NCBI GenBank assembly: GCA_026014805.1
Contig: JAOZHR010000016.1
Span: 27,283-91,282 of the forward strand
Length of the DNA: 64,000 bases
From: Candidatus Bathyarchaeota archaeon
Lineage (GTDB): Archaea > Thermoproteota > Bathyarchaeia > Bathyarchaeales > SOJC01
Direction of reading: 5' to 3'
In this document: positions 39,638 to 55,753 of the stretch, piece by piece
Position numbering within the stretch: the first letter of the stretch is position 1
How the letters are laid out: each line of letters starts with the position of its first letter
Notes under the pieces: model-generated
Told to the model about the DNA's origin: nothing
Databases searched by the model: none
The model's input: only the letters and a program-made list of their open reading frames with translations
Program-made: the position numbers and the translations under genes

Positions 39638-40417
39638 TTAAAGCATTTGAGAAATTATGACTAAAGCACCAGCTGCCCAGCAATAAAGCGCAAACCAGTG
39701 AAACCTCTTTTTCATAACTACTTTCCGCAAAACTTTGAGCGATAGGTAACCCACAGCCATCGATGTCACAACACCTACAACCACTGCAATCACATCTCCG
39801 TGGCCAATTAATAAATTCAAATCGCCCGACTTCGCGATAGTCGCACCTAAAACCGCTGGAATCGACAATAAAAAAGAGAATCTAAAAGCGGTTTCCTTAC
39901 CCACTCTTCGCAGTAGCCCTATAGAAATAGTGGCTCCGCTCCTTGAAATACCGGGAATTATAGCGGTTCCCTGTGCTATTCCTACAAGCAACGAGTCCAG
40001 AAAGCCTAAAGCCTTATCGCCTTCTCTTTGTTCTGAGAAGAAAAGTAAGAAGCCAGTTGCCAAAAGAGCGGCTCCCACGACAAGCAAGTTGTCAAAAAAA
40101 GACTCGAAAAGATCTTGAAAAATGTAACCAATAACCGCGGTAGGTACACTGCCCACAATAACACAAACGCCAAGCTTCCCCTCTTCAGACCTTAAATTTC
40201 GCCTAACAAGCGCCTTCAAAACCTCTACAATGTCTCTTCGAAAGAAAGCCACAATCACAACAAGTGTACCCACATGAAGAAGAACAAAAAAAATCACAGG
40301 TGGTCGCCAACCAAAAAATTCCTTTGCAATAGCCAAATGCCCCGAGCTAGACATTGGCAACCACTCTGTCAAGCCTTGAATTACCCCAAAAATCACCGCT
40401 TCGATAAACGACGCCAT
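39638..40417 (-). CDS. uppP: Undecaprenyl/polyprenyl-diphosphate phosphatase (BacA/UppP)
   Basis: GVIQGLTEWLPMSSSGHL and PGISRSGATI. Confidence 0.9.
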   Translation of the reverse strand: MASFIEAVIFGVIQGLTEWLPMSSSGHLAIAKEFFGWRPPVIFFVLLHVGTLVVIVAFFRRDIVEVLKALVRRNLRSEEGKLGVCVIVGSVPTAVIGYIFQDLFESFFDNLLVVGAALLATGFLLFFSEQREGDKALGFLDSLLVGIAQGTAIIPGISRSGATISIGLLRRVGKETAFRFSFLLSIPAVLGATIAKSGDLNLLIGHGDVIAVVVGVVTSMAVGYLSLKVLRKVVMKKRFHWFALYCWAAGALVIISQML

Positions 40418-40610
40418 AAACTTCCCAGTTGTCCCACCACATATTTAAGTTTCCCAAAACCGCAACAGTCCCAGCTCTGATCAGAAGCCTATTCAGAGAC
40501 AAATAAAATCCCTAGAAGCGGGGCACAAGCTGAATCCCATCACGCTTATAAGAAGACATAAATAGTTTATCCCATTTGTTCTTTTGAAGTTATCACGTGG
40601 GATAATATTT

Positions 40611-40775
40611 ATGCCCCAAAAGGTTTTTTGTCAAAAATGCGGTTACGTTTTATATAACGGCCCGGACCTGAAACCGCCAGACGAAATCATACAGAAATAC
40701 GACGGAAAATGTCCAAAATGCGGCAGAAAACTATCCTCCGTACCCATAGATGTGGAAGTCAAGCCAGCAGAATAG
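40611..40775 (+). CDS. Small zinc-ribbon protein
   Basis: MPQKVFCQKCGYVLY..(25)..KCPKCGRKL. Two CxxC pairs. Confidence 0.55.
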   Translation: MPQKVFCQKCGYVLYNGPDLKPPDEIIQKYDGKCPKCGRKLSSVPIDVEVKPAE

Positions 40776-40797
40776 AAAGTTGACAAGGTGTCGTGAC

Positions 40798-41934
40798 TTG
40801 AGTAAGCAAGGACAAAAGACCCACCTCTACAAGTTTAACGCCAAAAACGGTAAAATAGTCTCCTTCGCAGAGTTTGAAATGCCAATTTGGTACAAAGGCA
40901 TAATTCCAGAACATTTGGCGGTAAGAAACAACGTTGGTATTTTCGACGTAACTCACATGGGAAGAGTAATAATCACCGGACCTGACGCCGAAGCATTCCT
41001 CAACTACGTAACAACAAACAACGTCTCCACCCTAGAACCCCTAAGCGCCCACTACTCAACCATGTGCAACGAAAGAGGCGGAATAAAAGACGACTTCGTC
41101 ATCTCACGACAAGAAAAAGAAAAATTCTTCATGGTATACAACGCCGCTAACAGAAACAAAAACTATCAATGGCTAACAAAACAAGCAACCCACTTCAACG
41201 TAAAAATAGAAGACATGTCAGACAACATAGCCATGTTCGCAGTCCAAGGACCCAAAGCCCAAGAAACGCTACAGAAAATTTCCACCGAAGACCTAAACGA
41301 AATTAAACGATTCAAATGCGGCTGGACAAAACTCGCAGGCCTTGAAGCTTTCATTTCAAGAACAGGCTACACAGGCGAAGACGGATTCGAAGTGTTCATC
41401 TGGAACACTCCCGTTTCAAACCCGGAAAAAGCAGTAAAAGCGTGGAACACAATTCTTGAAGCGGGAAACGAATTTCTCATTGAGCCTTGCGGCTTAGGCG
41501 CCAGAGACACTTTAAGACTAGAAGCTGGCATGTGCCTCTATGGCAACGACATTGACGAAAACACTACGCCCCTAGAAGCGAGAATAAGTTTTGTGGTGAA
41601 GCTGAAAAAAGAAAATTTCATAGGCAAGGAAGCCCTGCTCAAACAGAAAGCTGAAGGAGTAAAGAAAAAGCGTATTTGTCTAAAAATGCTTGGACCTGGA
41701 ATTCCACGCCCCAAGCATGAAATCTCTAAAGACGGGGAGAAAATAGGTTATCTGACAAGCGGAACCTTCTCGCCTCTATTAAAGTACGGCATCGCTATGG
41801 CCTATGTCCAAACGGAGCATGCAATTCAAGGTGAAACAGTAAACGTAAAGATAAGAAATAAACAGGCAAAAGCTGAGATAGTCAAATCACCATTCTACGA
41901 CCCCAATCGATATGGTCACGCAAGAAAACACTGA
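40798..41934 (+). CDS. gcvT: Glycine cleavage system T protein (aminomethyltransferase)
   Basis: KTHLYKFNAKNGKIVSFAEFEMPIWY, GIFDVTHMG, RTGYTGEDGFE and ARDTLRLEAG. The track ORF starts at 40750 and overlaps the upstream gene. The TTG at 40798 fits the usual N-terminus. Confidence 0.85.
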   Translation: MSKQGQKTHLYKFNAKNGKIVSFAEFEMPIWYKGIIPEHLAVRNNVGIFDVTHMGRVIITGPDAEAFLNYVTTNNVSTLEPLSAHYSTMCNERGGIKDDFVISRQEKEKFFMVYNAANRNKNYQWLTKQATHFNVKIEDMSDNIAMFAVQGPKAQETLQKISTEDLNEIKRFKCGWTKLAGLEAFISRTGYTGEDGFEVFIWNTPVSNPEKAVKAWNTILEAGNEFLIEPCGLGARDTLRLEAGMCLYGNDIDENTTPLEARISFVVKLKKENFIGKEALLKQKAEGVKKKRICLKMLGPGIPRPKHEISKDGEKIGYLTSGTFSPLLKYGIAMAYVQTEHAIQGETVNVKIRNKQAKAEIVKSPFYDPNRYGHARKH

Positions 41935-42010
41935 TGCAAAATGCTTTCGGAACCGCAAGGGAAATAAAAGAGTTTTATCAACTTGATTGAGCAAAAAGGG
42001 GACGTGACTA

Positions 42011-44185
42011 TTGGACCTTAGAAATTTGATATCACGAGAAAAAATAGTGGACGCTCTACATAGTCTATCAAACTTAAGAATCCCTGTTTCTCGTTCCACT
42101 TTGCTCACAATTTCAGCATTAACGTTAATTTTCTTTGTCGCCTTCTCTATAAGACTGTTCCCTATCCGTTGGGGGCTCGAACTCTCAGAATTCGACCCGT
42201 ACTTTCAATATCAGTTTACAGAAAAAATAGTGAAAGACGGATACTTCGACTGGGTTACGTGGAAAACGTCTGAAGCCAATCGATGGTATCCTCTTGAAGT
42301 ATCGGTCGGGCGCGCAGCTTTTCCTGGTCTTCCTCTAACCGCTGCAACCCTGTACAACATACTCTCTATCTTGGGGGTGCCCATATCCCTATACCACTTT
42401 TGCATAATATTTCCAGTTATTTTTGGGGCGTTGGCGTGTTTAATAGCGTTTTTCTTAGGAAGCGATGTTGGAGGCAAGACTGTAGGTCTTTTCTCTGCCT
42501 TCTTCCTCGCATTGAATTCATCCCATATTACAAGAACATCTATAGGATTTTTCGATGATGAAACCGTTGGAATAGGGGCTATTCTCCTTTTCGCGTTTTT
42601 GTTTCTCAGAGCCTTAGATGAAAAACGCCCCAAAAAACACTCTGCACTTTATGCCGTCACAGCTGGTTTGACGCTTGGTTATGTAACCGCCTCATGGGGA
42701 GCAGCACTCTACCCAATAGCGATGGCAACTCTCTTTGTATTTACCCTGATTTTGCTTAAGCGTTACACACGTCGCTTGCTTATTTCATACAGCATAACAT
42801 TCGGCCTTGGCTTATTTCTAGCAATTAATGTCCCTAAGAACTCCATTAGTTACCTCACTACATGGGCGATTCTGCCAGTGCTAGGCATCTTCGGTTTGCT
42901 ATGTCTTAATGAAGTGTTAAACGCCATAAGCAGCAGAAAATGGAAAATTATCTTAACTGCAGTTTTCTTTGCAACGATGATTGGTGGGTTCCTAATCCTG
43001 TCATATCTGGGGTATATGGGTTCGATTGCAGGAAAGTTTATCGGTGTCATAAATCCGACGCAGCGAGGGGCATCGCAAATATATCAATCAGTTCAAGAGC
43101 ACAGACTTACAGCATGGGGTTCTCTGTACTATGACTACGGTGTTGGCGTGCTCTTTTTCGTGTTAGGCTTGTTCTTTGCAATAAGAGACCTAACTAATAG
43201 AAACCTTTTCTTTGTTATCTTCGGCTTAACGGCATTATACTTCGCTTCTTCTATGGTTCGATTAACCATATTGTTAGCGCCCGCATTCTGCCTTCTGATG
43301 GCAATCGGAATAGTGAACTTGTTGAAACCATTCATAACCATAATGAAAGAGACGCCAAAACTAGCCCTAGGCAAAAGATATATCACAGGACATGTTGGAA
43401 AGGAATTCAGCGGATCGGTTCTCATCCTCATATTCTTGCTTTTAACACTAACCTATGCCTTTCCTTCGCCGAGAATGTATACCCATTCATACTCACCACC
43501 TACAATACTTTCCGCAAGCACCCCAATACGACCATCAGAGCCAATTACTGAGTGGACTGAGATGCTTGAATGGATGAAACTTAACCTTCCAGAAAAAGCA
43601 ATTGTCTGCAGCTGGTGGGACTACGGATATTGGATATCAGTGAAGGGGAATCGAACATCTCTTGCAGATAATGCCACTTTCAACACTACACACATAGGAT
43701 TGATAGGCCAAGTTTTTATGTCCAATGAAACCCAAGCAGTAAAAATTCTAAAAGAGCGATTCAACGGGCCCGATGGACCCCCAACACACATTCTTGTCTT
43801 CACGACATTCAACAGTCTAGGAGGCGACGGTAATTATGGTGACGAGGGAAAATGGCGATGGATGGCTAGAATTGCCAACCAAAGTGTAGCTCCTGGCTTC
43901 TATTGGGAGTCAGAAGACGAACGATCCAATACTTTCGGAAACATAACGGAGGAGGGACAGTGGGTTTGGAATGATGTGGGAAAAAACACAACAATTTACA
44001 AGTTGATGGAAACAGCAAAGTACTCTTTAGGTGGTGCTCCCGAAGAAGCACCTGACCTAGAATTCTTCAAAGTCTCCCACTTCTCGCCTGGAAACCCAAT
44101 AGCATCCCTTGGAACTTACGAAGAACAAACCGTGTACCTTTTCGCGTTGGTTGCTCTTTATGAAGTGAATTACCCCGCTGCTTGA
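42011..44185 (+). CDS. aglB: Archaeal oligosaccharyltransferase AglB (STT3 family)
   Basis: EFDPYFQYQ in the first loop, GFFDDETVG, and the catalytic WWDYGYWI motif. Confidence 0.9.
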   Translation: MDLRNLISREKIVDALHSLSNLRIPVSRSTLLTISALTLIFFVAFSIRLFPIRWGLELSEFDPYFQYQFTEKIVKDGYFDWVTWKTSEANRWYPLEVSVGRAAFPGLPLTAATLYNILSILGVPISLYHFCIIFPVIFGALACLIAFFLGSDVGGKTVGLFSAFFLALNSSHITRTSIGFFDDETVGIGAILLFAFLFLRALDEKRPKKHSALYAVTAGLTLGYVTASWGAALYPIAMATLFVFTLILLKRYTRRLLISYSITFGLGLFLAINVPKNSISYLTTWAILPVLGIFGLLCLNEVLNAISSRKWKIILTAVFFATMIGGFLILSYLGYMGSIAGKFIGVINPTQRGASQIYQSVQEHRLTAWGSLYYDYGVGVLFFVLGLFFAIRDLTNRNLFFVIFGLTALYFASSMVRLTILLAPAFCLLMAIGIVNLLKPFITIMKETPKLALGKRYITGHVGKEFSGSVLILIFLLLTLTYAFPSPRMYTHSYSPPTILSASTPIRPSEPITEWTEMLEWMKLNLPEKAIVCSWWDYGYWISVKGNRTSLADNATFNTTHIGLIGQVFMSNETQAVKILKERFNGPDGPPTHILVFTTFNSLGGDGNYGDEGKWRWMARIANQSVAPGFYWESEDERSNTFGNITEEGQWVWNDVGKNTTIYKLMETAKYSLGGAPEEAPDLEFFKVSHFSPGNPIASLGTYEEQTVYLFALVALYEVNYPAA

Positions 44186-45042
44186 AGGCGAAAAACTTGT
44201 TTCCTAAAGCGGTTGATCAACATAAGCCAAACAAACCTTTAGTTCCAAATGGGCTCGGCGTGACATATGTCCTAGTTAGTGCAGTCTACCTTTTTGTACT
44301 CTACTTTTTTGACCATGCAACAGCCTTGCCTTTAGCCGGGTGTATTTTATTCGGCGGATTTATGGGACTTCTTGATGACTGGGTAGACTTGAGATGGCGA
44401 TACAAAGCGTTTCTACCACTATTTGCATCATTGCCCTTAGCCGTGCAGAGAGAAGCAATAGGTCCCGAAGCCACAAAAATGGCGACGTATATCTTCGGCA
44501 AAATTGATTTCGGCATCTACTTCTACATCATAGTAATACCGATAATAGTCACTATAACGACTAATGCAGTAAATCAACTTGGCGGGTTAAACGGTTTAGA
44601 AACTATCTGCCCTTCTATTATCATGGTTGGATTAATGGTTACTTCCCCTAAGACCAATGTTCTTCTTTTTGCGCCTTTTCTCATCTACCTAATTCTTGCC
44701 TGCTTAAACTTTTCTGGAAAGATTTTTGTTGGGAATACTGGTACTTTCGCCGTAGGCATCACACTTGCCTCGTACGCAATCATCGCGAATAACGAACAAA
44801 CGTTACTGATTTCAATTCTACCCTTCATCCTCAACTCCTCCCTGATACTGCTAAACATTTTCTTGTTGGGCAAGACAGCCCATCTCATTCTAAAGAATCA
44901 CACACTATGTTCAGAAAACAGGCGCAGTCTGTTAACGCTAATCGCTTACTATAAACCTTTAACTGAGCGGAAACTTGTATCAGTTGTGTCGTTGCTTATT
45001 GCACTTTCAACTTTCATAGCAGTCTTTGCGTGGTTTACATGA
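44182..45042 (+). CDS. aglH: Dolichyl-phosphate GlcNAc-1-phosphate transferase (AglH/ALG7/MraY-WecA superfamily)
   Basis: LLDDWVDL and NAVNQLGGLNGLE (the eukaryal/archaeal N-x-x-N-x-x-x-G-x-N-G-L-E form). Its TTG start overlaps the aglB TGA (TTGA). Confidence 0.75.
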   Translation: MKAKNLFPKAVDQHKPNKPLVPNGLGVTYVLVSAVYLFVLYFFDHATALPLAGCILFGGFMGLLDDWVDLRWRYKAFLPLFASLPLAVQREAIGPEATKMATYIFGKIDFGIYFYIIVIPIIVTITTNAVNQLGGLNGLETICPSIIMVGLMVTSPKTNVLLFAPFLIYLILACLNFSGKIFVGNTGTFAVGITLASYAIIANNEQTLLISILPFILNSSLILLNIFLLGKTAHLILKNHTLCSENRRSLLTLIAYYKPLTERKLVSVVSLLIALSTFIAVFAWFT

Positions 45043-46115
45043 TAAAAAGAGTGTTGATAACAGGCGCTGGCGGTCCAGCTGGTGTAAACTTCACGCAGTC
45101 GTTGAAGATTGCACCAGAGAAAATGTTCTTGGTCGGCACCGAAGCAAACAAGTACTATGCCAATCTGGCATCGACTGATAAGATATATGTTGTCTCAAAA
45201 GCAACAGCCTCCAATTACATCGATATAGTAACCCAAATTATTGAAAAAGAAAAAATCGAATTTGCTCATCCACAACCAGATATTGAAGTGAAAACTTTTT
45301 CAGAGAACAGGGAAAAACTAGAAGTAAACATCTTTCTTCCATCAAAGACTACAATACAAATCTGCCAAGACAAACTTAAATCAGCTGAAAGGTGGAAAAA
45401 AAAAGGTGTCTCTGTGGCAAAAGCAATCGAGTTAAAGAACGAAGCCGACGTTGAAAGAGCCTTTGGAGAACTCGGAACCCCCCTTTGGATAAGAGCCAAA
45501 TGGGGAGCTGGAGGAAAAGGAAGTACCCCTGCAAGCAGTCTGGAAACAGCGTTATCGTGGATCAATTACTGGAAATCTCGTAACAAAGAATGGCAATTCA
45601 TTGCTCAAGAATATCTACAGGGCAGGAACATCGGATTTCACAGTCTGTGGAAAGATGGCGAGCTTGTTACATCAATGGCTAGAGAGCGGGTACAGTACAT
45701 CTATCCCCATCTTGCCCCCTCTGGAATAACTGGTACACCTTCTGTTCAACGAACAATACACGATGACGAGGTTAACGAAACCGCCACCGAGGCTGTACTA
45801 GCAATCGACCCAAGCTTCAATGGCATTGCATGTGTAGACTTGAAGGAAAACAACAAGGGAATCCCGTGCGCCACGGAAATCAACGCTGGACGAATGTTCA
45901 CAACCTCGTTTTTCTTCTCCTACACAAGCAAGAAATTGCTGAAGAGCTATCACGCAAACTTTCCCTACCTCTGCCTTAAACTAGGCTACCGAGAGCATAT
46001 TCCCAACATTCCAAAATATAACATTTTGCCACAAGACCTCTACTGGATCAGACATATCGACGCACCGGCAAGACTTGTCAAGGCGGGGAAAGTCGTTGGG
46101 GCAATGTATAGATGA
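45039..46115 (+). CDS. ATP-grasp domain ligase
   Basis: MIKRVLITGAGGPAG; mid-protein WIRAKWGAGGKGS; CVDLKE...ATEINAGR. ATGA overlap with aglH. Confidence 0.6.
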   Translation: MIKRVLITGAGGPAGVNFTQSLKIAPEKMFLVGTEANKYYANLASTDKIYVVSKATASNYIDIVTQIIEKEKIEFAHPQPDIEVKTFSENREKLEVNIFLPSKTTIQICQDKLKSAERWKKKGVSVAKAIELKNEADVERAFGELGTPLWIRAKWGAGGKGSTPASSLETALSWINYWKSRNKEWQFIAQEYLQGRNIGFHSLWKDGELVTSMARERVQYIYPHLAPSGITGTPSVQRTIHDDEVNETATEAVLAIDPSFNGIACVDLKENNKGIPCATEINAGRMFTTSFFFSYTSKKLLKSYHANFPYLCLKLGYREHIPNIPKYNILPQDLYWIRHIDAPARLVKAGKVVGAMYR

Positions 46116-46606
46116 TTGATGGCGTCGTTTTTGATTTAGAAGGAACCCTAGTTAAACTTCCTATAGACTATGAGAAGTTGTATGAAGAGATAAAGAGAGA
46201 GCTAAGGATTTCGAGAGTTAAACCGTTAACTAAAACTGTTAAGAAGTTAGACGGCAAGTCACGGGAGAAAGTTTACGAACTTTGGGAACGTGCTGAATTG
46301 AAAGCGTTACCGAACATGAGCGCCAACGATGAAGGAATGAAAATATACAAAAAACACTCCAACAAGCCCGTGGCGTTAGTTACCATGCAAGGCAAGACTG
46401 TTGTCAGAAAAATCCTTGACCACTTTCACCTATCTTTTAATGCCGTAGTCACTAGGGAAGGTGAGATAGATAGAGCGCAACAAATTAGAAAAGCCATAGA
46501 CGAAATAGGCTTGGAGCCCCACAGCGTAGTCGTGGTCGGAGACAGAGACAGCGATGAAGCCGCAGCGAAACAAGTCGGTTGCGCATTCTTAAGGGTGATG
46601 GCTTGA
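46112..46606 (+). CDS. HAD-superfamily hydrolase
   Basis: Motif I VVFDLEGTLV (Glu at the D+2 position) and motif IV VGDRDSDEAAA. Confidence 0.75.
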   Translation: MIDGVVFDLEGTLVKLPIDYEKLYEEIKRELRISRVKPLTKTVKKLDGKSREKVYELWERAELKALPNMSANDEGMKIYKKHSNKPVALVTMQGKTVVRKILDHFHLSFNAVVTREGEIDRAQQIRKAIDEIGLEPHSVVVVGDRDSDEAAAKQVGCAFLRVMA

Positions 46607-47580
46607 AAGTCTGGTATGATGCTTGTACTGGAAAACACGTAAGATACGGAGTTGCCATAGCCCAACGGCTCAAAGCTTTAGGGCACGAAGTCATACTCAC
46701 CACCAGAAAACACCCCGACACACTTGCATTATCCAAACTGCTCGGCGAAAAGTTCAAAGTTGTAGGCAAGTATTCCCCCTCTTCAGTTCAATCTAGACTG
46801 AAGGAAAGTTTGAAGCGTCAACTCGCTTTTTGTGAAATGTTCGAGAATGAACCGCCAGATTATGCTGTCTCTCACGGGTCTATCGACTTGTGTCGAGTTG
46901 CTTTCGGATTGGGCGTACCTACGATATCAACGGCTGATGCTCCCCACGCTATTGCAGCAAACAAACTTGCACTGCCACTAGTCGATGTCTTAATCGCTTC
47001 CAAGGCAATCCCTCCACGGGAATATGAGAGCTTTGGAGTTAAGAAAATCGTCCAGTTTGACGGAGTGGACGAAGTGGCTTGGGTGAAGGGCTACAAGCAT
47101 GGACCCGACGAGTACGAAAAGCCCCTAATAGTTGTTAGACAAATGGAAACCATGGCGTCTTACGCCAAGGGAAAACGCGATGCCACGGAACAGATAGCGC
47201 AGAAACTTGTCTCTCTTGGGAATGTAATGTTTATTCCACGATATGACAGAAGCCCCAGACGCGGGTTGATTGTTCCGCAGGAATTTGCTGACTCTGTCCG
47301 TCTTTCAGCTGCTGCAGATCTAGTTGTGAGTGTTGGGGGAACGATTTCTAGAGAAGCTGCGTTGCAGGGGACTCCGAGTTTGGTGATTCCCATTTTTGGA
47401 GCGTCTTACGTCAATGATTATCTTTTCAAGCTGGGATTCACATTATTCACGGTGGAGCCGAGTGAGGTTTTCAAACTAGCGAAGAAACATGTGAGTCAAA
47501 AATGGGATGTTAAAGAACGGTTGGAACTGCTTGAAAATCCAGTTGACTATATTGAAAAAATCATTAGAAAGAAACTCTGA
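46603..47580 (+). CDS. DUF354-family protein (archaeal predicted GT-B-fold enzyme)
   Basis: (M)KVWYDACTGKHVRYGVAIAQRLKALGHEVILTTRKH. The TTG start overlaps the HAD TGA (TTGA). Confidence 0.55.
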   Translation: MKVWYDACTGKHVRYGVAIAQRLKALGHEVILTTRKHPDTLALSKLLGEKFKVVGKYSPSSVQSRLKESLKRQLAFCEMFENEPPDYAVSHGSIDLCRVAFGLGVPTISTADAPHAIAANKLALPLVDVLIASKAIPPREYESFGVKKIVQFDGVDEVAWVKGYKHGPDEYEKPLIVVRQMETMASYAKGKRDATEQIAQKLVSLGNVMFIPRYDRSPRRGLIVPQEFADSVRLSAAADLVVSVGGTISREAALQGTPSLVIPIFGASYVNDYLFKLGFTLFTVEPSEVFKLAKKHVSQKWDVKERLELLENPVDYIEKIIRKKL

Positions 47581-47716
47581 TGCTGCTGAAACAATACTAA
47601 AACGAAGTTTGCGTTTTTAAAAGCAGCATTTCTATCAAATTCTGCAATCCATAAGAGCTAAATAGAGTGGAACGTCCACATCTTACAATAAAAGTATTCA
47701 TGGAGCTAAAAGACGC

Positions 47717-48457
47717 TTGAGGGTTGAAAAGGTTCTGGTTATCGGGCTGGGAGAGATAGGTGCTCCTCTTCTGGAGGTTGTTAAGGGAGTTCATAGTGCA
47801 GAAGGGTTAGACATTGAGCCTAAAGAGGTTCATGGCCCCGTTGATGTGCTGCATATTTGCTTCCCCTATAGTACAAATTTTGTAGAGACCACGGTCAATT
47901 ATATGAACAAGTTTAATCCTAAACTGACCATCATAGAAAGCACAGTTCTCCCCTTCACAACAAGCAAAATCTATGAAAAAACCCAAAAACCAGTCTCTCA
48001 CAGTCCAGTGCGGGGAAGAAAAGCCGACGGATTCAAATGGGCATACTTCACCTACACAAAGTTCATTGGACCCGCAAAACCAGAATTTGGAAAAATGACA
48101 GAAGAATACTATCAATCGTTAGGCTTCAAAACACACGTATGTAACTCTCCTTTGGAAACGGAGTTCATGAAAGTTCTCAACACCACCTATTATGGGCTTA
48201 TGATTACTTGGTTCCAAGAAATCCACCGAATCTGCGAAAAATTCCAGCTCAAAGAGGAAGAGGTAATCGAGTTTTTCAGAACAAATGAAAGAGATTCGGG
48301 GGGAAGGCATCTGCGCCCGGTGTTTAGTCCTGGAGTTATAACAGGACACTGTGTGATTCCAAACGCCGAGTTGCTGAAAGAGTTGTATCCGTCCCCTTTT
48401 GTTAAGGTTCTTCTGGAGTCAAACGAAAGACGGAAAAAAGAAGCAGAATCGAAGTAG
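47717..48457 (+). CDS. NAD(P)-binding protein, short UDP-glucose/GDP-mannose dehydrogenase-like
   Basis: VLVIGLGEIGAPL Rossmann motif. ETEFMKVLNTTYYGLMITWFQEIHRICEKF resembles the UDPGDH central helix. ITGHCVIPN is a possible catalytic Cys context. Confidence 0.4.
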   Translation: MRVEKVLVIGLGEIGAPLLEVVKGVHSAEGLDIEPKEVHGPVDVLHICFPYSTNFVETTVNYMNKFNPKLTIIESTVLPFTTSKIYEKTQKPVSHSPVRGRKADGFKWAYFTYTKFIGPAKPEFGKMTEEYYQSLGFKTHVCNSPLETEFMKVLNTTYYGLMITWFQEIHRICEKFQLKEEEVIEFFRTNERDSGGRHLRPVFSPGVITGHCVIPNAELLKELYPSPFVKVLLESNERRKKEAESK

Positions 48458-48592
48458 ACTCGCTTATTAGATAGGTGCTATGCAACAGATGAGGACCCTA
48501 TCCGCGGCGCTAAGCATTAGAAGCCGTTTTTTAAGGCTGCAAGGCAATAAGCTACAGCATATACAGATTTGCAGGGGCAAAGTCGTTTGAAA

Positions 48593-49510
48593 ATGAAAGC
48601 CATAGTGATACTGGTCTCTATGTCGCTCATAGTCTTAGAAAGACTTCTCCCAGTATCTAAGATTTGGATAATTTTGGTCCCGCCGATAGCCTTCAGCATA
48701 GTGGCTACCATTCTATCAGTTAGAAAAGGAAACTCATACCTCAATGAACTGCCAAATGTCCTAAGAGTTTTATCTGCATCCGTTGGAGCCGTGTTACTAG
48801 GCTTTTTCTCGCCTCTTTCTATAATGTCTGGGCTCTTGTTTGTTTTACTTGGTGTTTTTGCAAATGACGAAGCTGTGAGGAGGTTGTACAGGCATAAAGG
48901 GGTTATTGTGCTGACCGGTATTGACGCCACTGGAAAGTCAACGCACGCTCGCAACATTTCTTCTTGGTTAAAAGGCAAAGGTATAAAATGCGAAATACTG
49001 CCGTTCCACAGATACCTCTTTCTTGGCAAGCTTTCTAACTTGAAAAGTGGAGGAAAACTAAGCCAAGCAACGGGAAACAGGGCTCCTATAGCCAAGACTA
49101 GTAAGTTTTCTCTTATTAGACCTTACGTGGCTCTTGTTGACAACGTCATATTTTACATTCTTAGAGTGCTTCCGCACATCGTTAAGCGGGAATACGTGGT
49201 TTGCGACCGTTTTATCTGGGACAACTACGTTAAACACAAAGCTCTTGGATACAACACACGTTTTCTTTTCAGACTTTCCACTCTGATAAAGCCCCAAATC
49301 AGCATAGTTTTCGACTTACCTGCAGAAATTGCCTTCGAGAGAGTGGAGAAAAGAGAGAAGCACCTGCGATACTCAATTGAGCAGTATAAGATTGAAAGAA
49401 AGGAATTCAAAAAAATAGCGATGATGCTAAACTACCCAGTGGTCAACACGAACGAGTCAATTCAACAAACTTGGAATCGGATAGAGGCTTATCTTGATTC
49501 GTTTATTTGA
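48593..49510 (+). CDS. Membrane-anchored P-loop kinase, thymidylate-kinase-like
   Basis: Three or four N-terminal TM helices. Then VIVLTGIDATGKSTHARNISSWLKGKG (Walker A) and VVCDRFIWDNYV. The track ORF starts at 48569. Confidence 0.55.
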   Translation: MKAIVILVSMSLIVLERLLPVSKIWIILVPPIAFSIVATILSVRKGNSYLNELPNVLRVLSASVGAVLLGFFSPLSIMSGLLFVLLGVFANDEAVRRLYRHKGVIVLTGIDATGKSTHARNISSWLKGKGIKCEILPFHRYLFLGKLSNLKSGGKLSQATGNRAPIAKTSKFSLIRPYVALVDNVIFYILRVLPHIVKREYVVCDRFIWDNYVKHKALGYNTRFLFRLSTLIKPQISIVFDLPAEIAFERVEKREKHLRYSIEQYKIERKEFKKIAMMLNYPVVNTNESIQQTWNRIEAYLDSFI

Positions 49511-49632
49511 GAAAAAACAGCACAGCAGGTTTTAGTAAAATGTTTTTATCATACTTTTTGGCTAGTTAACCTGTCCGGTGATTGCTAAGAAAATGGCAAA
49601 AGTTCACGTTTGTCATGTAAAGAGATGGAGAA

Positions 49633-50220
49633 ATGAAGCGCAGAAAGAAAGAAAACGAAAGAACTATAAAGATAGGAATAGGGATTCCTTGTCACATCAA
49701 AGATAAGCATTTTTTGGAGGCATGCTTACAGGCCATTGCTAATCTTGACCCCCCGCCACATACTTATTTAGTGGATTTGAACGAGGGTGAAGACGGATTA
49801 AAGGGAATTAGAACACGTTTGTTTGATAAACTATTCGAAACATGTGATGTTGTTCTTCAATGCGATGTTGAATTTTACTTGTTCCCGGATATATTATCCC
49901 ACGTTCAAGAAAGAAAAGTAACAAGTTTCTGCCACTTAACACGAAGCCTTGTTGATATTATCAAAGTAGTAGCACGTTTTTTAAGCCCTAATCCTTGGAC
50001 AGGTTGTTATAGTTTACCGAAACATGTTTGGCAGAAAGTCAAAATATCTTATAGATGGGATGGAACAGATACGAGCATTCAGAAAATTGCAAGCAACTAT
50101 AAATTTGTGTATACCCCCAAATATTACATTCTCCGTCGCTCTCCACGTAGAATTCAAGTTGCTTTGAGTGACAAAAGTTTGCTAAAGAAAATAAGAAATT
50201 TACTACTGCGAGGGATCTAG
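49633..50220 (+). CDS. Hypothetical protein (possibly a small GT-A-like fold)
   Basis: IGIGIPCHIKDKHFLEACLQAIANL and QCDVEFY. The assignment is weak. Confidence 0.35.
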   Translation: MKRRKKENERTIKIGIGIPCHIKDKHFLEACLQAIANLDPPPHTYLVDLNEGEDGLKGIRTRLFDKLFETCDVVLQCDVEFYLFPDILSHVQERKVTSFCHLTRSLVDIIKVVARFLSPNPWTGCYSLPKHVWQKVKISYRWDGTDTSIQKIASNYKFVYTPKYYILRRSPRRIQVALSDKSLLKKIRNLLLRGI

Positions 50221-50225
50221 AGAAC

Positions 50226-51053
50226 ATGTCTGAAATAGTTGACTTTAGAGTGAGACTTCGAACACCCAGCGCATTGAAAGCTTGGGTTCCCAAACCCATA
50301 CCTCAGTTTGAAAAATACATAGACTTCTACAAGATGAAACCTCGGTTAACCTATCAAACTCCAGAGGAAACAATCGAAGAAATGCGAAGTGTAGGAATCA
50401 AAAAAGCGGTACTGTGTTCGGGTAGCGCGGAAGGAAACAAGATTCTTGCTACGATGTGTAAAGAATACAGTGATGTTTTCATTGGAATAGCAGGAGCAAA
50501 ACTCAACAAGGGAGTAATGCACGCCTACAAGGAATTAAAGAAATCATTGAGCGCGAATTTGCTCGGATTTAATTTCGGTGGACTCCTGCAAAATCCGCCG
50601 ATGGCTATTGATGATAAAAAACTCTATCCATTATATGCCCTTTGCATTGACTACGACGTATGTGCAATAGTACACTCATCGCTACACTATTACACTGGAT
50701 CGAAACTAGAACTGAACAGTCCGTTCAGAATCGACAACGTTAGTGTTGATTTTCCAGACTTGAGAATAGTCATGTCCCATGCTGGAAATGGTTTCGGAGA
50801 CTTGCCTCTAGTGTTGGCACACAGGCATCCAAACGTATACTTGGAAGTGAGCGCGTTGCGACCAAAACACTTACCACAATCATACATTAGTGCTATGAAC
50901 AAATACCTGAGCCAAAAATTCATTTTTGCAAGTGACTACCCTTTGCTGCCATTTACCATAGTGGAAGAATGGAAGCAATACGTTAAGAAAGAGAATTACG
51001 AAAGATTTTTCCACGAGAATGCAATGACCGCTCTCTTCGGTCGACGGCGATAA
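50226..51053 (+). CDS. Metal-dependent amidohydrolase-superfamily TIM-barrel protein (Amidohydro_2-like)
   Basis: IVDFRVRLRTP at the N-terminus, IVHSS, IVMSHAG, and a C-terminal ASDYP. Confidence 0.6.
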   Translation: MSEIVDFRVRLRTPSALKAWVPKPIPQFEKYIDFYKMKPRLTYQTPEETIEEMRSVGIKKAVLCSGSAEGNKILATMCKEYSDVFIGIAGAKLNKGVMHAYKELKKSLSANLLGFNFGGLLQNPPMAIDDKKLYPLYALCIDYDVCAIVHSSLHYYTGSKLELNSPFRIDNVSVDFPDLRIVMSHAGNGFGDLPLVLAHRHPNVYLEVSALRPKHLPQSYISAMNKYLSQKFIFASDYPLLPFTIVEEWKQYVKKENYERFFHENAMTALFGRRR

Positions 51054-51055
51054 CA

Positions 51056-51943
51056 ATGAAAGCGAAAGAAATAGCTTCGTTTATTGGCGGGGAACTTATA
51101 GGCAATCCAATGAAAGATGTGACGAAGCCAAGTTATTTGCATACAGCCAAAGGAGACGAGCTGACATATTGTTATCTAAAGAGTGATGAAAGAGATTTGG
51201 AAGCAATAAGCAAAACAAAAGCGGGGATAATAATATGTCAGAAGAATCTTAGAAGGAAGCTTGAACGAATCAATGTCAAGCCCACGCTGATTCTTAGTGA
51301 AGCACCAAAATACGATTTTGCCAAAGTTCTCCAAGAGTTCTTTGTGAAGGAAACACCCATGATATCTCCATTTTCCTACGTGGCTGTGAATGTGAAACTA
51401 GGAAAAAATGTCGACATCCATCCAGGTGTAGTAGTTCATGGTAATACAGTAATAGGAAATAGAGTGATTGTAAGGTCAAACGCTGTTTTAGGTGCAGAAG
51501 GACTTGACTATGGGAGAAACCAAAGAGGTGAGCTAAAAAGAATACCCCATATGGGCCATTTAATCATCGAGGATGATGTAGACATAGGAAGCAATACAAT
51601 AGTTCAAAAAGGAATACTTAGACCTACAATCATAGGAAAGGACACCAAAATTGGACCGAACTGTGACATTGGGCATGAGGTGAAAATTGGAGAACATTGT
51701 ATAATAACAGGGATGACTCTAGTGGCGGGAGCAACTGAAATAGGAGATCATACCTACATAGCACCACATTCAACTATAAAAAACAGTATCAAAATAGGTA
51801 GCAACGTTTTTGTAGGAATTGGAAGTTTGGTGATACGCAATGTTCCTGATGGAACAAAAGTGGTTGGAAGACCCGCTATAGAAATAGAACGTTTCAGAGA
51901 ACATAGAAAACGTCTAAAGGAACTGTTGGGAGAAGACATATGA
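51056..51943 (+). CDS. LpxD-like N-acyltransferase (UDP-binding N-domain plus left-handed beta-helix)
   Basis: N-domain KEIASFIGGELIGN..GDELTYCYL..AGIIIC. Beta-helix LGAEGLDYGRNQRGELKRIPHMGHLIIEDDVDIGSNTIVQKG..IGPNCDIGHEVKIG. This aligns with E. coli LpxD [55 protein letters not shown], including the catalytic His. Confidence 0.75.
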   Translation: MKAKEIASFIGGELIGNPMKDVTKPSYLHTAKGDELTYCYLKSDERDLEAISKTKAGIIICQKNLRRKLERINVKPTLILSEAPKYDFAKVLQEFFVKETPMISPFSYVAVNVKLGKNVDIHPGVVVHGNTVIGNRVIVRSNAVLGAEGLDYGRNQRGELKRIPHMGHLIIEDDVDIGSNTIVQKGILRPTIIGKDTKIGPNCDIGHEVKIGEHCIITGMTLVAGATEIGDHTYIAPHSTIKNSIKIGSNVFVGIGSLVIRNVPDGTKVVGRPAIEIERFREHRKRLKELLGEDI

Positions 51944-53328
51944 AAAGAGCCGCAATGATAGGCTTAGACGGTATGTCCTGGCACATTCTAGACCAGCTTT
52001 TTGAATGGAAAGTTATGCCGAATCTTGAAGAGCTCACAAAAGAATCACTAAGAGGAACTTTGCGATCAACAATTCCTCCAGAATCAGCTCCTGCATGGAC
52101 AAGTATAGCAACAGGTGTAAATCCAGGAAAACATGGAATCTTTAGTTTCACAAAACCCACAGAAAATTATGATGATATAAGAATCATGAGTTCCCGTGAC
52201 GTTAAATATTTAAGAATTCATGAAATGGTCGCGATACAGAACTTAACAAGCGTCTGTGTAAACCAACTTCTGACCTATCCTATAAAGAGAATCCAAAAAT
52301 CATACGTAATTACTGATTGGCTCTCTCCAGAAATAAAATATTCCCCAGAGATAAAACAATACGCGGAGAATTACCGAGGACCCACATTGAGCAAGCCGCT
52401 GCCTCTACTAACAAAAAATTGGCATTCCGAATACGTTGATGTATCAAGCCGTGTCGATACAGTCAACACACTTCTACAAAAGATAAATTGGGACTTGTTT
52501 TGGGTCGTTTATAGCGAACCAGACCATCTGTTCCATAGATACTATGATTTGGTCATGAAAAGAGACAAAAGACTAATGCAATTATTCACTAAGATCGACG
52601 AGACTTTTGGAATAGTTAAGGATATTGCTGATCTAATAATAGTTGTTTCTGATCATGGCTTCCGTAAGTATAGCAAAGGAGTATATGTCAATACTACACT
52701 TGGAAATCTAGGGTTGGCAGAAAAAGTATCACAACAAACCATTAAAAATATTTCTTGTCAACGGCAGATCGGCGAACCTAAAGTAAAATTTCGCCTACCA
52801 GAAAAGTTGAACAGATATATTTCTGCAATTCCACCACCAGTTGAAGCAATATTGCTGAAACTCTATAAACAATTTCTGAAGGCAGACATCAAGGTGGCAC
52901 TTACAACTCATGTTAACCCAAAATCATCAAAAGCATTTGCGCATGGATTTGGAATTTTTGTAAAAGAAAAAAAACTGATTGATTACGTTATCTCAATGTT
53001 AAAGAAAAAAACCTTCGTCGGAGGGATATGGAAAAAAGAAGAACTTTATGATGGGGAACAGTTGAAGGCTATGCCAGACTTGGTGATAGTTCCGAACTTT
53101 GATGGAGGATTCGCATTTCGTGGCGACGTTATCGCGCCTAAGTCAGTGATAAGGAGAGGTTTTTCTAATCACCACCCCGATGGTATCATAATACTCTACG
53201 AAAAAAATGTACGACCAGTTTGGGTAAATGGAACAAGAGTGTATGATGTCGTTCCCACAATATTGGATTTTCTTGGCTTGGATATACCAGAAAACACAGA
53301 CGGCAAAGTGATAAATTTCGCAGCATAG
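51940..53328 (+). CDS. Alkaline-phosphatase-superfamily protein (type I phosphodiesterase / nucleotide pyrophosphatase-like)
   Basis: MIGLDGMSW, TIPPESAPAWTSIATGVNPGKHGIF and VVSDHGF. ATGA overlap with the upstream gene. Confidence 0.7.
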   Translation: MKRAAMIGLDGMSWHILDQLFEWKVMPNLEELTKESLRGTLRSTIPPESAPAWTSIATGVNPGKHGIFSFTKPTENYDDIRIMSSRDVKYLRIHEMVAIQNLTSVCVNQLLTYPIKRIQKSYVITDWLSPEIKYSPEIKQYAENYRGPTLSKPLPLLTKNWHSEYVDVSSRVDTVNTLLQKINWDLFWVVYSEPDHLFHRYYDLVMKRDKRLMQLFTKIDETFGIVKDIADLIIVVSDHGFRKYSKGVYVNTTLGNLGLAEKVSQQTIKNISCQRQIGEPKVKFRLPEKLNRYISAIPPPVEAILLKLYKQFLKADIKVALTTHVNPKSSKAFAHGFGIFVKEKKLIDYVISMLKKKTFVGGIWKKEELYDGEQLKAMPDLVIVPNFDGGFAFRGDVIAPKSVIRRGFSNHHPDGIIILYEKNVRPVWVNGTRVYDVVPTILDFLGLDIPENTDGKVINFAA

Positions 53329-53596: not shown

Positions 53597-54052
53597 CTAC
53601 TCTCTTGCACGTACAATATGATTAAGCAAGCCGGCAATCCATCGGAGGCGCGATGGAAGATAGTTATGTAGTAATTCTATGTCTCGCTTTTCCACGGCTT
53701 TCAATACAATCAAAGAAAGAAGATAAACGACCACACCTACGGCTGCGTAAACAGGAAGCAGACGTAAACGTAGAACAAGAAACTGATAAGACGAGGGATC
53801 AGTGATTGCCCTTAAAAGTTCCAACGCGAAAAGTGATAGAATCATGGTTATAGACGCCGTTGCCGACTTCCATATTGCTTCTCTGTCGAACTCTATCTTG
53901 AGACTCGCCCAAAGCACATATGTTCCTAAACTAAACCCTGCAAGCGCAGCAAAAAACCTTAAAGCGCCACCCCTGTTAAGTCTGCGTTTAAATATGCTAG
54001 AGAAATGTATGAAAGAAACGCATCTAAGATAATAACAATTGCATGCATACAT
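53597..54052 (-). pseudogene. Possible 3' remnant of a Wzx/MATE-like polysaccharide flippase gene
   Basis: The 151-aa ORF holds about 4 TM helices and ends ..VVYLLSLIVLKAVEKRDIELLHNYLPSRLRWIAGLL, which resembles a flippase C-terminus. Only 190 nt separate it from rfbB, so there is no room for the other ~330 codons. Confidence 0.35.
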
Positions 54053-54243
54053 CGCACTGGTAGCTTGCTTTAATGTTGGTGAGGATGTTTTTCTCTCGTC
54101 GCCTTTCCAGTTATTTTCGAAGCGTTGGCAGGTTGTATTTTATGAATTTTCTGAGGGTTGTTGAGGGGTTTTGCCCCACTAGCCATGCATGCATTTACCG
54201 ATATGGCGTCGCAGAAGACTAGTACGAAGAAACTTGTTTGAGC

Positions 54244-55266
54244 TCATGAGCTGACGCGGAACTCAGCGCGTGGAGACTTCCATGGTGTATCAGCTTTGAA
54301 AAATCTATCTCCTAAAAGAGGATTCCACCACCATTTGTTACTTTTATACCAATCAAGCGTTTTTTCTAGACCTCTAGAGAATGCGAACGTTGCTTTCCAG
54401 CCAAGAGCTCCTATTTTAGTAATATTAAGTGAATATCTACGATCATGACCTGGTCTGTCGGGTACGTGTTTTATTAAGCCCTCTGATCTATTCAACATTC
54501 TCAAAATCTTCATTACGATTTCAATGTTCATGAGTTCCTCGCTCGAAGCGATGTTGTATATTTCTCCATCTTTTCCTTTTTGAGCCACTAAATCTATAGC
54601 CGCGCAGTTGTCTGTGACATAAAGCCAATCTCTTACCTGTCTCCCGTCACCATAGATGGGTAGAGGTTGGTTGTGGAGGGCGCGCAGTATTAGCTTGGGG
54701 ATTAGTTTTTCGGGGTATTGGAATGGTCCGTAATTGTTGGAGCTGCGGGTGACAATCACTGGGAGTCCGTATGTTTTATGGAAGGCCAAGGCAATGTGAT
54801 CGCCTGAGGCTTTGCTTGCAGAGTAGGGACTGGATGGGTCTAGAATGTCTGTTTCTTTGAAAGATCCGTTCTTTATGCTGCCGTAGACTTCGTCGGTGGA
54901 AATTTGCACAAATCTTTTGACTTCGAATCTTCTTGCGGCGTCTAGGAGGATGTAAGTTCCGTATGCGTCAGTCAAAACAAAGGAACCTGCCTCTGCAACA
55001 CTTCTATCAACGTGGGTTTCAGCCGCGAAATTTATTATCAAGTCAAATTTCTCTTTCACTAAGGGCTCTACTGCTTTTCTGTCTCGAATATCTCCGTGAA
55101 TGAATCTGTAACGTGAATCGTCTTTTACATCTTGCAAATTTTCAAGTCTACCCGCGTAGGTAAGCAGGTCAAAATTGACGATTTCTATGTCTTCATGGTT
55201 TGATAACATGTGTCTTGTGAAGTTGCTGCCGATGAAGCCTGCTCCGCCTGTAACTAAGACTCTCAT
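54244..55266 (-). CDS. rfbB: dTDP-glucose 4,6-dehydratase
   Basis: MRVLVTGGAGFIGSNFTRHML, ETHVDRS and PYSASKA. Confidence 0.9.
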   Translation of the reverse strand: MRVLVTGGAGFIGSNFTRHMLSNHEDIEIVNFDLLTYAGRLENLQDVKDDSRYRFIHGDIRDRKAVEPLVKEKFDLIINFAAETHVDRSVAEAGSFVLTDAYGTYILLDAARRFEVKRFVQISTDEVYGSIKNGSFKETDILDPSSPYSASKASGDHIALAFHKTYGLPVIVTRSSNNYGPFQYPEKLIPKLILRALHNQPLPIYGDGRQVRDWLYVTDNCAAIDLVAQKGKDGEIYNIASSEELMNIEIVMKILRMLNRSEGLIKHVPDRPGHDRRYSLNITKIGALGWKATFAFSRGLEKTLDWYKSNKWWWNPLLGDRFFKADTPWKSPRAEFRVSS

Positions 55267-55275
55267 TACTCTTTT

Positions 55276-55743
55276 TCACCCGTGTTTTAGCCATGGTGCA
55301 AGTTTCCAGTCATAAGGAATCTTCTCGGTGTCTGGGGGTAATCGGTGTTCGTCTGGTTTCTTGTAGTTGTATAGATTAGTGGGTACATTCATGACGAGGG
55401 CGGTTTCTTCGCCTATTGCTTTGAATCCATGCCAGACTTGGGGCGGTATCTTAACGAGTAGAGGGTTTTTTTCGCCGATGACGAACTCGTTGATTTCTCC
55501 TTTGGTTTTCGAATTTTTTCTGCCATCGCATAGAACGAGTTTAACCATTCCTTTTACGCAGGCTATGTTGTCTGTTTGTTTTTTATGCATGTGCCAAGCC
55601 TTCACCACTTCTGGATAGGCTGCGGTGACGTAGGCTTGGGCGAATTTTTCGAATAATTCCCAGTCGCTTCTGAGGACCTCCATTAACCAGCCTCTTTCAT
55701 CTGCAATTAGCCTCAGTTGCCTTGTAACTACTCCTTCAATCAA
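55276..55743 (-). CDS. rfbC: dTDP-4-dehydrorhamnose 3,5-epimerase family (short cupin form)
   Basis: DERGWLMEV, KAWHMHKKQTD and VWHGF. It sits between rfbB and rfbA. Confidence 0.7.
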   Translation of the reverse strand: MIEGVVTRQLRLIADERGWLMEVLRSDWELFEKFAQAYVTAAYPEVVKAWHMHKKQTDNIACVKGMVKLVLCDGRKNSKTKGEINEFVIGEKNPLLVKIPPQVWHGFKAIGEETALVMNVPTNLYNYKKPDEHRLPPDTEKIPYDWKLAPWLKHG

Positions 55744-55753
55744 TTACAACGCC

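Follow-up and report, generated by a model that had tools for sequence, protein, structure and literature searches.

An aglB-headed gene run of a Bathyarchaeota archaeon is probably a mosaic N-glycosylation island

We analysed a stretch of 64,000 nucleotides from a Candidatus Bathyarchaeota archaeon (GenBank assembly GCA_026014805.1, contig JAOZHR010000016.1, positions 27,283 to 91,282 of the forward strand), hereafter the window, whose first letter is position 1 in all coordinates below. It carries a run of genes headed by aglB, which encodes an oligosaccharyltransferase. An earlier note, made from the sequence alone, had read the enzymes of this run as following the logic of the Raetz pathway, with analogues of LpxC, LpxD, LpxH, LpxB and LpxK. 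Family profiles identified the families of the encoded proteins, and comparison with related loci revealed the mosaic structure of the run and the pattern of linkage among its genes. The run consists of independently inherited modules, and we consider that the region is probably an aglB-anchored N-glycosylation island lying between gcvT and a PAC2-family gene, in which a conserved core is combined with a hypervariable decoration region.

Gene content and junctions of the aglB run

The open reading frames (ORFs) of the window include eleven genes between 42011 and 53328, all on the plus strand, in agreement with the earlier note (Table 1). Four-nucleotide stop/start overlaps were present at all five junctions for which that note had reported them. 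The shared letters are TTGA at aglB/aglH (44182-44185) and HAD/DUF354 (46603-46606), and ATGA at aglH/ATP-grasp (45039-45042), ATP-grasp/HAD (46112-46115) and LpxD-like/phosphodiesterase (PDE) (51940-51943). The aglH/ATP-grasp overlap holds if the ATG at 45039 is taken as the start, the longest ATP-grasp ORF beginning earlier, at a GTG (45030), and the DUF354 gene starts in its homologues at the TTG at 46603, not at 46579. Four successive overlaps join the first five genes, from aglB to DUF354. Only 5 nt separate the gene for a 195-aa protein from the Amidohydro_2 gene, and 2 nt the latter from the LpxD-like gene. Because the run is also interrupted by three real gaps, each with AT-rich stretches, of 136 nt (DUF354/short dehydrogenase), about 111-135 nt (dehydrogenase/kinase) and 122 nt (kinase/195-aa gene), it is likely to be expressed as several transcription units. 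Five proteins of the run, namely the kinase, the 195-aa protein, the amidohydrolase, the LpxD-like protein and the PDE, match the NCBI proteins MCW3985580-84 exactly (locus tags on the matching entries: NWE91_04115, _04120 and _04130). Family profiles detected no aminotransferase among the eleven proteins, as the earlier note had stated.

Table 1. Genes of the aglB run and of its flanks, in window coordinates
Feature	Positions	Strand	Basis
BacA-type polyprenyl-diphosphate phosphatase, lipid-carrier recycling; upstream flank	39638..40417	-	PF02673, E 2e-73
GcvT aminomethyltransferase; left flank, outside the island	40750..41934	+	PF01571, E 3e-91
AglB oligosaccharyltransferase, STT3 family	42011..44185	+	PF02516, E 2e-36; WWDYGYW in translation
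AglH-like GT4-family polyprenyl-phosphate N-acetylhexosamine (HexNAc)-1-P transferase	44182..45042	+	PF00953, E 2e-20; ~6 transmembrane segments
ATP-grasp carboxylate-amine ligase	45039..46115	+	PylC-like_N / ATP-grasp_3; 'CPS-like' PRK12767
Small HAD-IA phosphatase	46112..46606	+	Family profiles; motif I DLEGT
DUF354 protein, GT-B fold	46603..47580	+	PF04007, E 3e-42
Short UDP-sugar-dehydrogenase-like (UGDH-like) protein, 246 aa	47717..48457	+	PF00984, TIGR03026
Membrane-anchored thymidylate-kinase-like P-loop protein	48593..49510	+	PF02223, 42 bits
195-aa protein, small uncharacterised family, at mosaic junction	49633..50220	+	No Pfam or NCBIfam match
Amidohydro_2 protein	50226..51053	+	PF04909, E 6e-23; DFRVR instead of HxH
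LpxD-like left-handed beta-helix (LbH) N-acyltransferase	51056..51943	+	NF002060, TIGR01853, PF04613, scores below cut-offs
Cytoplasmic AlkP-superfamily NPP/PhnA-like PDE	51940..53328	+	PF01663, E 4e-31
Wzx-like Polysacc_synt flippase remnant, residues 366-528	53603..54079	-	tblastn with L004 flippase
rmlB-rmlC-rmlA-rmlD, dTDP-rhamnose synthesis, convergent with the run	54244..57717	-	Pfam
PAC2-family protein; right flank of the island	57758..58525	-	PF09754, E 7e-44

For the comparison of neighbourhoods, 80 Bathyarchaeia loci at species level were retrieved with DUF354 homologues as anchors, together with 13 loci around other homologues (labelled L001, L004 and so on), and the first 90 were scanned with the proteins of the window. 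Species-level loci with at least 6 kb on both sides (n = 28) are referred to as well-flanked. The whole eleven-gene order was found in none of the 90 loci. Instead, the genes that the earlier note had placed in one pathway fall into separate modules across these Bathyarchaeia loci, and the supposed LpxC, LpxD, LpxH, LpxB and LpxK analogues are not linked elsewhere, the LpxD-like and PDE genes alone being co-inherited.

A conserved head module adjoins AglB

The head of the run, module A (42011-48457), encodes AglB, the AglH-like GT4 enzyme, the ATP-grasp ligase, the HAD phosphatase, the DUF354 protein and the short UGDH-like protein. The order gcvT-AglB-GT4-ATP-grasp-(HAD)-DUF354-short dehydrogenase was recovered in L001, L004, L006-L008, L010, L012, L013, L073, L084, L085 and L089, and gcvT lies directly 5' of AglB in these same loci and in L038. 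Among 65 loci, the gene 5' of DUF354 encodes a small LbH acetyltransferase (17), a HAD protein (16), an ATP-grasp protein (14) or a GT4 enzyme (12), and its commonest other neighbour is the short UGDH-like gene, found in 15 of the 28 well-flanked loci. The ATP-grasp gene adjoins the HAD gene, the DUF354 gene or both in many Bathyarchaeia loci, and in the inspected loci the HAD gene sits directly 3' of it. Two of the loci with a typical Bathyarchaeia DUF354 neighbourhood, L010 and L076, are filed under Krumholzibacteriaceae bacterium and Acidoferrum sp. and are probably mis-binned contigs.

The HAD protein does carry the DLEGT motif I that the earlier note had singled out as unusual. It is, however, shared by 9 of 31 orthologues, and since 21 of the 31 keep the canonical DLDGT, the change of Asp+2 to Glu is a substitution of a sub-clade and not a trait of the family.

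The DUF354 protein is the only one of the run with a glycosyltransferase (GT) fold, and its named relatives all belong to Bathyarchaeota/Bathyarchaeia. Its AlphaFold 2 model (pLDDT 94) matched GT1-family glycosyltransferases in Foldseek at E values near 1e-11, the best TM-score (0.73) being that of a UDP-GlcNAc 2-epimerase. MurG ranked 46th, and LpxB was not among the top 50 matches. The Pfam scan likewise gave no match to the LpxB family (PF02684), and the protein is not LpxB-like. Profile searches returned a weak match to the GT1 donor motif only, and searches of the PDB with the sequences of the DUF354 protein and of the PDE gave nothing useful. The model thus indicates a generic GT-B protein, which is probably a glycosyltransferase of the conserved glycan core. 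Agl24, Alg13-Alg14 and MurG share a GGxGGH loop with an essential His (PMC8993221). The DUF354 protein, a possible member of this group, resembles these enzymes as a GT-B of about 325 aa encoded near GT4 and AglB, with a Gly-rich N-terminal loop followed by a His and with MurG among its structural matches. Yet its loop is not GGxGGH but an invariant T9-G10-K11 followed in the majority by His (TGKH), and GT1-family and epimerase structures match it better than MurG.

The short UGDH-like protein matches only positions 103-299 of the 413 of TIGR03026 and, in Pfam, the UDPG_MGDP_dh central domain alone, and has no C-terminal UDP-binding domain. The short form occurs in 46 of 48 Bathyarchaeia UGDH-like homologues, most of which keep the motif GHC[LVI]IPN, whose Cys is presumably catalytic. 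Members of this family measure about 245-310 aa, occur in the window and in L001, L004, L038 and L084-L090, and adjoin DUF354 in most Bathyarchaeia loci.

The tail of the run is strain-variable and recombinant

Module B (48593-53328) comprises the genes of the Tmk-like kinase and of the 195-aa protein and a cassette of Amidohydro_2, LpxD-like and PDE genes. Other loci carry different tails. GT1, LbH, PIG-L, Hexapep, PDE, sulfatase and methyltransferase genes occupy the tail of L001, while in L007 a single unassigned ORF leads directly to the flippase and rml genes. GT1, LbH220 (a 220-aa LbH protein), LpxD-like and PDE genes make up the tail of L084 and L085. The tail of L004, L012 and L038 consists of GT1, Amidohydro_2, LpxD-like and PDE genes (the L012 contig ends after the LpxD-like gene), and the GT1 gene that precedes this cassette is missing from the window. 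Downstream of the kinase gene, L087 and L089 encode a GT2 enzyme, a 276-aa PDE on the reverse strand, a second GT2 enzyme and a methyltransferase, with an additional B12/radical-SAM gene in L087.

DNA comparisons located the breakpoints. Between 44756 and 49617 the window and L087 are 95% identical, but downstream of this block they are unrelated. L089 (80%) aligns over 40546-49611, with a further aligned part in the rml genes and the flippase remnant, and L004 (76%) over 41062-47571 and then over 50239-53318. Hence, homology to L087 and L089 stops at 49617 and 49611, homology to L004 and L038 begins at 50239, and the 195-aa gene sits exactly between the left and right blocks. Because of these breakpoints, we conclude that the window is a recombinant of a 'kinase-type' left part and an 'LpxD-cassette' right part with the 195-aa gene at the seam, and that L087 and the window differ by strain-level swapping of glycan cassettes. 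The head has a G+C content of about 0.43-0.44, against about 0.39-0.41 for the tail.

The kinase, which the earlier note had likened to LpxK, matched Thymidylate_kin only among the profiles and thymidylate kinases in the PDB (E 4e-6). It displays the P-loop GIDATGKST, a DRF motif and about three predicted N-terminal transmembrane helices, and at 305-313 aa (305 aa in the NCBI call) it exceeds the roughly 200 aa of soluble Tmk. With 37.4 bits against the dTMP-kinase equivalog TIGR00041, whose cut-off is 83.25, it falls outside dTMP kinase proper. By its motifs and profiles, the protein is Tmk-like and not LpxK-like. Homologues were confined to L087-L090 among the 90 scanned loci, with no LpxD homologue beside them.

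Family profiles upheld ten of the eleven labels in the earlier note, the exception being the unsubstantiated 'GT-A-like' label of the 195-aa protein. This protein had no match in Pfam or NCBIfam and no homologue among the 90 scanned loci, and hhalign gave a probability of 5.6% for its alignment with GT2. We also considered whether it might be a shortened form of the GT2 encoded after the kinase in L087 and L089, but rejected this because no DNA or protein similarity was found. Its family has 36 representatives, one of them fused to a methyltransferase, and since its members have about the same length (most 180-215 aa), the protein is taken to be full length.

An LpxD-like acyltransferase and a phosphodiesterase are stably linked

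The LpxD-like protein scored 203.6 bits against NF002060 (cut-off 207) and 194.3 against TIGR01853 (cut-off 242.5), below both curated NCBIfam thresholds for LpxD. The N-terminal domain PF04613 scored 27.2 bits, below its gathering score of 30.8, and is a precomputed match in many but not all members of the clade. The protein also matched sugar acetyltransferases of the NeuD/PglB/VioB type (TIGR03570, E 7e-28). Its IGHEV segment aligns with IAHNV of E. coli LpxD and IAHQV of the C. trachomatis enzyme, with conservation of the His that is the catalytic His239 in the E. coli enzyme. The LbH core and the active-site His are common to this protein and bacterial LpxD; it also has a C-terminal helix, and its match to the N-terminal uridine-binding domain is weak. 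By contrast, it is 45-50 residues shorter, lacks an lpxA/C/B/H/K context and belongs to an archaeon without outer membrane. The profiles bore out the statement of the earlier note that this is the only direct homology to the Raetz pathway.

The clade is specific to Bathyarchaeia: about 63 clusters at 57-96% identity are followed by a gap down to at most 41%, and identity to bacterial homologues is about 30-35% over 93-98% of the length. No genomic context of lpxA, fabZ, lpxB or other lipid A genes was found for the LpxD-like gene in the window or in L004, L038 and L084-L086. The nearest outgroups instead lie in clusters of polysaccharide type, beside PIG-L, a second LbH gene, or KASIII and acyl carrier protein (ACP) genes. 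One such locus, which is bacterial, reads GT4-PIG-L-LpxD-like-methyltransferase-GT56-DegT-PglD, and another KASIII-ACP-x-LpxD-like. A PIG-L de-N-acetylase gene adjoins the LpxD-like gene in L086 (convergent) and in the bacterial L091. A literature search for LpxD in Bathyarchaeota yielded no paper linking the two, and the archaeal LpxD-like/NPP-like pair did not turn up in this single search either.

Adjacent LpxD-like and PDE genes occur in the window and in L004, L038, L084 and L085, and thus in every close relative examined whose contig continues. The four-nucleotide overlap between them was checked in the window only. At least 23 LpxD-like clusters could further be paired with a PDE cluster through longest contigs of equal size, so that both families co-occur on the same contigs. 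Only these two genes are stably linked. The AlphaFold 2 model of the PDE (pLDDT 88) matched phosphonoacetate hydrolase PhnA, the SPAP/PafA phosphatases and NPP1/3/5/7 in Foldseek, and the protein has no transmembrane segment. Invariant residues are D10, D195, D238, H239 and H411, to which a nearly invariant H199 can be added, while position 49 is Thr in the majority consensus and Ser in the protein of the window. These would be the AlkP-type bimetal ligands and the nucleophile. Both enzymes of the pair therefore appear catalytically intact, the LpxD His and the ligands and nucleophile of the PDE being retained. In L002 (16651-20537), the genes for ATP sulfurylase and APS kinase enclose that of a more distant PDE homologue of 466 aa, with a TauE exporter-like gene following. 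This arrangement hints that this AlkP subfamily may handle sulfate or phosphosulfate chemistry in some genomes.

The Amidohydro_2 protein is a looser companion. It accompanies the LpxD homologue in three of seven related contexts (L004, L012 and L038, where the orthologues keep the DFRxR motif) and is absent from L084, L085, L086 and L093. In L084 and L085 the 220-aa LbH protein takes its place, and an LbH gene precedes the LpxD-like gene in L086 and L093. Its best PDB match (E 3e-23) is the uncharacterised Bordetella protein BB4693 (3IRS), which itself has DFRLR, and the literature on BB4693/3IRS offered nothing relevant. Enzymes of the amidohydrolase superfamily normally hold their metal through an HxH motif, and the characterised members of PF04909 are decarboxylases, lactonases and C-C hydrolases. 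Since RxR replaces HxH, and in view of these known activities, a role as metal-dependent de-N-acetylase is unlikely. The equation of this protein with LpxC, to whose family it had no match, finds no support in the profile searches, which leave it, like the thymidylate-kinase-like protein, in a family that does not fit its supposed Raetz counterpart.

Flanks of the island and a second glycan cluster

The genes around the run recur in related loci. A gene for a BacA-type phosphatase also lies upstream in L007, the rml block is present in L004, L007, L038 and L089, and PAC2 forms the right flank in L001, L007 and L085. Full-length flippases of 526-537 aa occupy the same position in L004, L084, L085 and L089. 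In the window, a 151-aa ORF retains the last third of the flippase, the first 365 codons being absent and 1.1 kb of the 5' part gone beside rmlB. This truncation suggests a recent rearrangement and, because the 5' part of the local flippase is lost, that another flippase must serve the island.

A second, larger glycan cluster extends over 1880-28283 on the minus strand. Its genes encode NeuB, three GT1 and three GT2 enzymes, a CE4 polysaccharide deacetylase, a methyltransferase, three short-chain dehydrogenase/reductase (SDR) epimerase/dehydratases, a CMP-transferase fused to a GT28_C (PseG-like) domain and a bona fide UDP-GlcNAc 2-epimerase (21948-23027). This content points to a polysaccharide with a nonulosonic acid. 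The 1624-aa ORF at 5269-10143 (minus strand), the 553-aa ORF at 24321-25982 and the 399-aa ORF at 18834-20033 had no Pfam match at E <= 1e-4. The only match to the LpxB family in the window is a weak one from a 569-aa protein at 11269-12978 (minus strand), whose residues 341-494 match PF02684 (30.0 bits, gathering score 22.6), Glyphos_transf (32.5 bits) and Epimerase_2 (30.2 bits). A generic GT-B domain at the C-terminus of a capsule-type or nonulosonic-acid transferase is the probable identity of this region, which is unrelated to the eleven-gene run. The single gathering-level Rfam match in the window is a tRNA gene at 34858-34942 (minus strand; RF00005, 44.6 bits).

Discussion

The features described above place the aglB run among systems of a known kind, namely archaeal agl clusters with cassette-like variability, although its accessory genes are uncharacterised. 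As in the agl clusters of Methanococcus, Haloferax and other Euryarchaeota, an AglB with WWDYG is followed by a GT4-family HexNAc-1-P transferase, with sugar-modifying enzymes, rml genes, a Wzx-like flippase locus and BacA around them and a strain-variable content. The accessory genes here, however, do not encode characterised Agl enzymes, and the flippase is truncated. The run also resembles bacterial O-antigen and capsule loci in its conserved flanks (gcvT to PAC2, with rml), its sharp breakpoints, the lower G+C of the variable part, the remnants at junctions and the different cassettes in strains otherwise 95% identical, but it is archaeal and AglB-dependent and not part of a bacterial Wzy or ABC pathway.

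Most likely, module A is responsible for the conserved core at the reducing end of a dolichol-linked glycan. From the enzyme families we infer both the substrates and the order of the steps. The GT4 enzyme would load HexNAc-1-P onto dolichyl phosphate and the DUF354 GT-B would add the next sugar. The short dehydrogenase may then form a uronic acid, the carboxylate of which could be amidated with a phospho-amine by the ATP-grasp ligase before the HAD phosphatase removes the phosphate. The last two steps are proposed because of a precedent, the glucuronamide module of the Campylobacter jejuni HS:2 capsule, in which the UGDH Cj1441 acts together with the TupA-like ATP-grasp amidoligase Cj1438C and the HAD phosphatase Cj1435 (PMC11800379). 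ATP-grasp, small HAD and UGDH-like genes are co-located in a glycan cluster in both cases. The likeness is by analogy only; the Bathyarchaeia run has a truncated dehydrogenase and no pyridoxal phosphate (PLP) enzyme to supply the amine phosphate. A literature search for the threonine-adding enzyme AglU of Methanococcus found nothing. N-acylation of an amino-sugar nucleotide is the probable task of the LpxD-like enzyme in the tail, and the N-acylated product would probably be cleaved at a nucleotide or phosphate ester by the NPP-like partner. As archaea generally lack ACP, the donor is likely to be acyl- or acetyl-CoA. The evidence is also consistent with the fallback idea of the earlier note that an N-acylated or amidated sugar is assembled on dolichol phosphate, in this case for AglB.

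Several points weigh against this interpretation. Conservation of the head is limited to a sub-lineage, since AglB lies near DUF354 in only 7 of the 28 well-flanked loci. The ATP-grasp enzyme is of the PylC-like/ATP-grasp_3 type and not of the TupA-like type of Cj1438C. The short dehydrogenase may not act on a nucleotide sugar at all, because the UDP-binding domain is missing. DUF354 proteins have been described as predicted glycosyltransferases with few conserved GT catalytic residues (PMC4520260), and because its highest TM-score is to UDP-GlcNAc 2-epimerase, the protein could be an epimerase or hydrolase instead of a transferase. A role as the UDP-GlcNAc 2-epimerase of the pathway is less likely, given the bona fide epimerase of the second cluster and the likeness of its sequence to GT1 donor sites. 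The truncated flippase may mean that the island has partly decayed in this genome. Finally, Bathyarchaeia are uncultured, no glycan structure has been described for them, and the substrates of the proteins are all putative.

We weighed three other explanations. That the eleven genes form one Raetz-like pathway to an acylated, phosphorylated glucosamine lipid or glycolipid, with the Amidohydro_2 protein in the place of LpxC, the PDE of LpxH, DUF354 of LpxB and the kinase of LpxK, we regard as highly improbable. The homology to LpxD is real and its His conserved, the PDE is NPP-like and NPPs bind UDP-sugars (6f30, NPP3 with UDP-GlcNAc, is among its Foldseek matches), the kinase is membrane-anchored and has a P-loop, and all genes share one strand. 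The linkage expected of a pathway is nevertheless absent: kinase homologues stand beside GT2 genes and never next to another LpxD-like gene, DUF354 occurs throughout Bathyarchaeia regardless of LpxD (an LpxD orthologue was present in 1 of the 28 well-flanked loci), and the Amidohydro_2 protein, with RxR for HxH, is dispensed with in four of the related contexts. No protein matches the LpxC, LpxK, LpxH or LpxA families and none of the eleven the LpxB family, LpxB is outside the top 50 structural matches of DUF354, the kinase with its DRF motif matches thymidylate kinases only, and the run is split by three intergenic gaps and a recombination junction. Less improbable, though still rather unlikely, is a tail cassette for the synthesis of an unusual nucleotide sugar, such as a uronic or deoxy sugar with an acetamido or acyl-amido group, which a transferase encoded elsewhere would add to the glycan, with the LpxD-like protein as an acetyl-CoA N-acetyltransferase and the kinase recycling thymidine nucleotides for the dTDP-rhamnose genes. 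The match to NeuD/PglB/VioB-type acetyltransferases, the adjacent rml genes, the Tmk-type P-loop and DRF motif and the polysaccharide-type context of the closest LpxD-like relatives outside Bathyarchaeia all fit such a cassette; but it contains no aminotransferase or 4,6-dehydratase to create the amine, the kinase reaches 37 bits where 83 are needed for dTMP kinase, and its three or so transmembrane helices are atypical for Tmk.

The tail may alternatively hold a reduced unit of two steps, N-acylation of a UDP-amino sugar by the LpxD-like enzyme and release of N-acyl-sugar-1-phosphate and UMP by the NPP-like enzyme in the manner of LpxH, a formal parallel to the formation of lipid X. The partner upstream that supplies the amine would vary, being PIG-L in some relatives and possibly Amidohydro_2 here. 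We judge this distinctly unlikely. The adjacency of the two genes, their co-occurrence on contigs, the apparently intact active sites, the PIG-L genes next to LpxD-like genes in L086 and L091, and a further PIG-L gene in the tail of L001 speak for it. An AlkP/NPP fold, however, would suit phosphatases, phosphonate hydrolases or phosphotransferases just as well, and the distant homologue amid sulfur-activating genes in L002 suggests other chemistry. Moreover, the acyl donor and a long chain are suppositions, Amidohydro_2 lacks the usual metal motif, and L084, L085 and L093 carry a second LbH gene instead of a deacetylase. A more specific form, very doubtful in our view, holds that the LpxD-like clade is always coupled to the cytoplasmic NPP-like enzyme and turns a UDP-amino sugar into a lipid-X-like N-acyl-sugar-1-phosphate, with interchangeable de-N-acetylases (PIG-L or RxR-type Amidohydro_2) supplying the amine, so that an N-acylated, not N-acetylated, hexosamine would enter an archaeal glycan or glycolipid.

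An aglB-anchored island built of modules thus remains our preferred reading, and it bears on a group of abundant, uncultured sediment archaea whose surface glycans are undescribed. It defines beside AglB a core module of GT4, ATP-grasp, HAD, DUF354 and short UGDH-like genes, which is a candidate maker of the inner glycan. The link to lipid A biosynthesis is removed, and the oddity that remains, the archaeal LpxD-like/NPP-like pair, is a small and defined biochemical target. Even near-identical strains carry different outer parts of the island, a swapping also seen at bacterial O-antigen loci, and this pattern suggests diversifying selection, for example by viruses.

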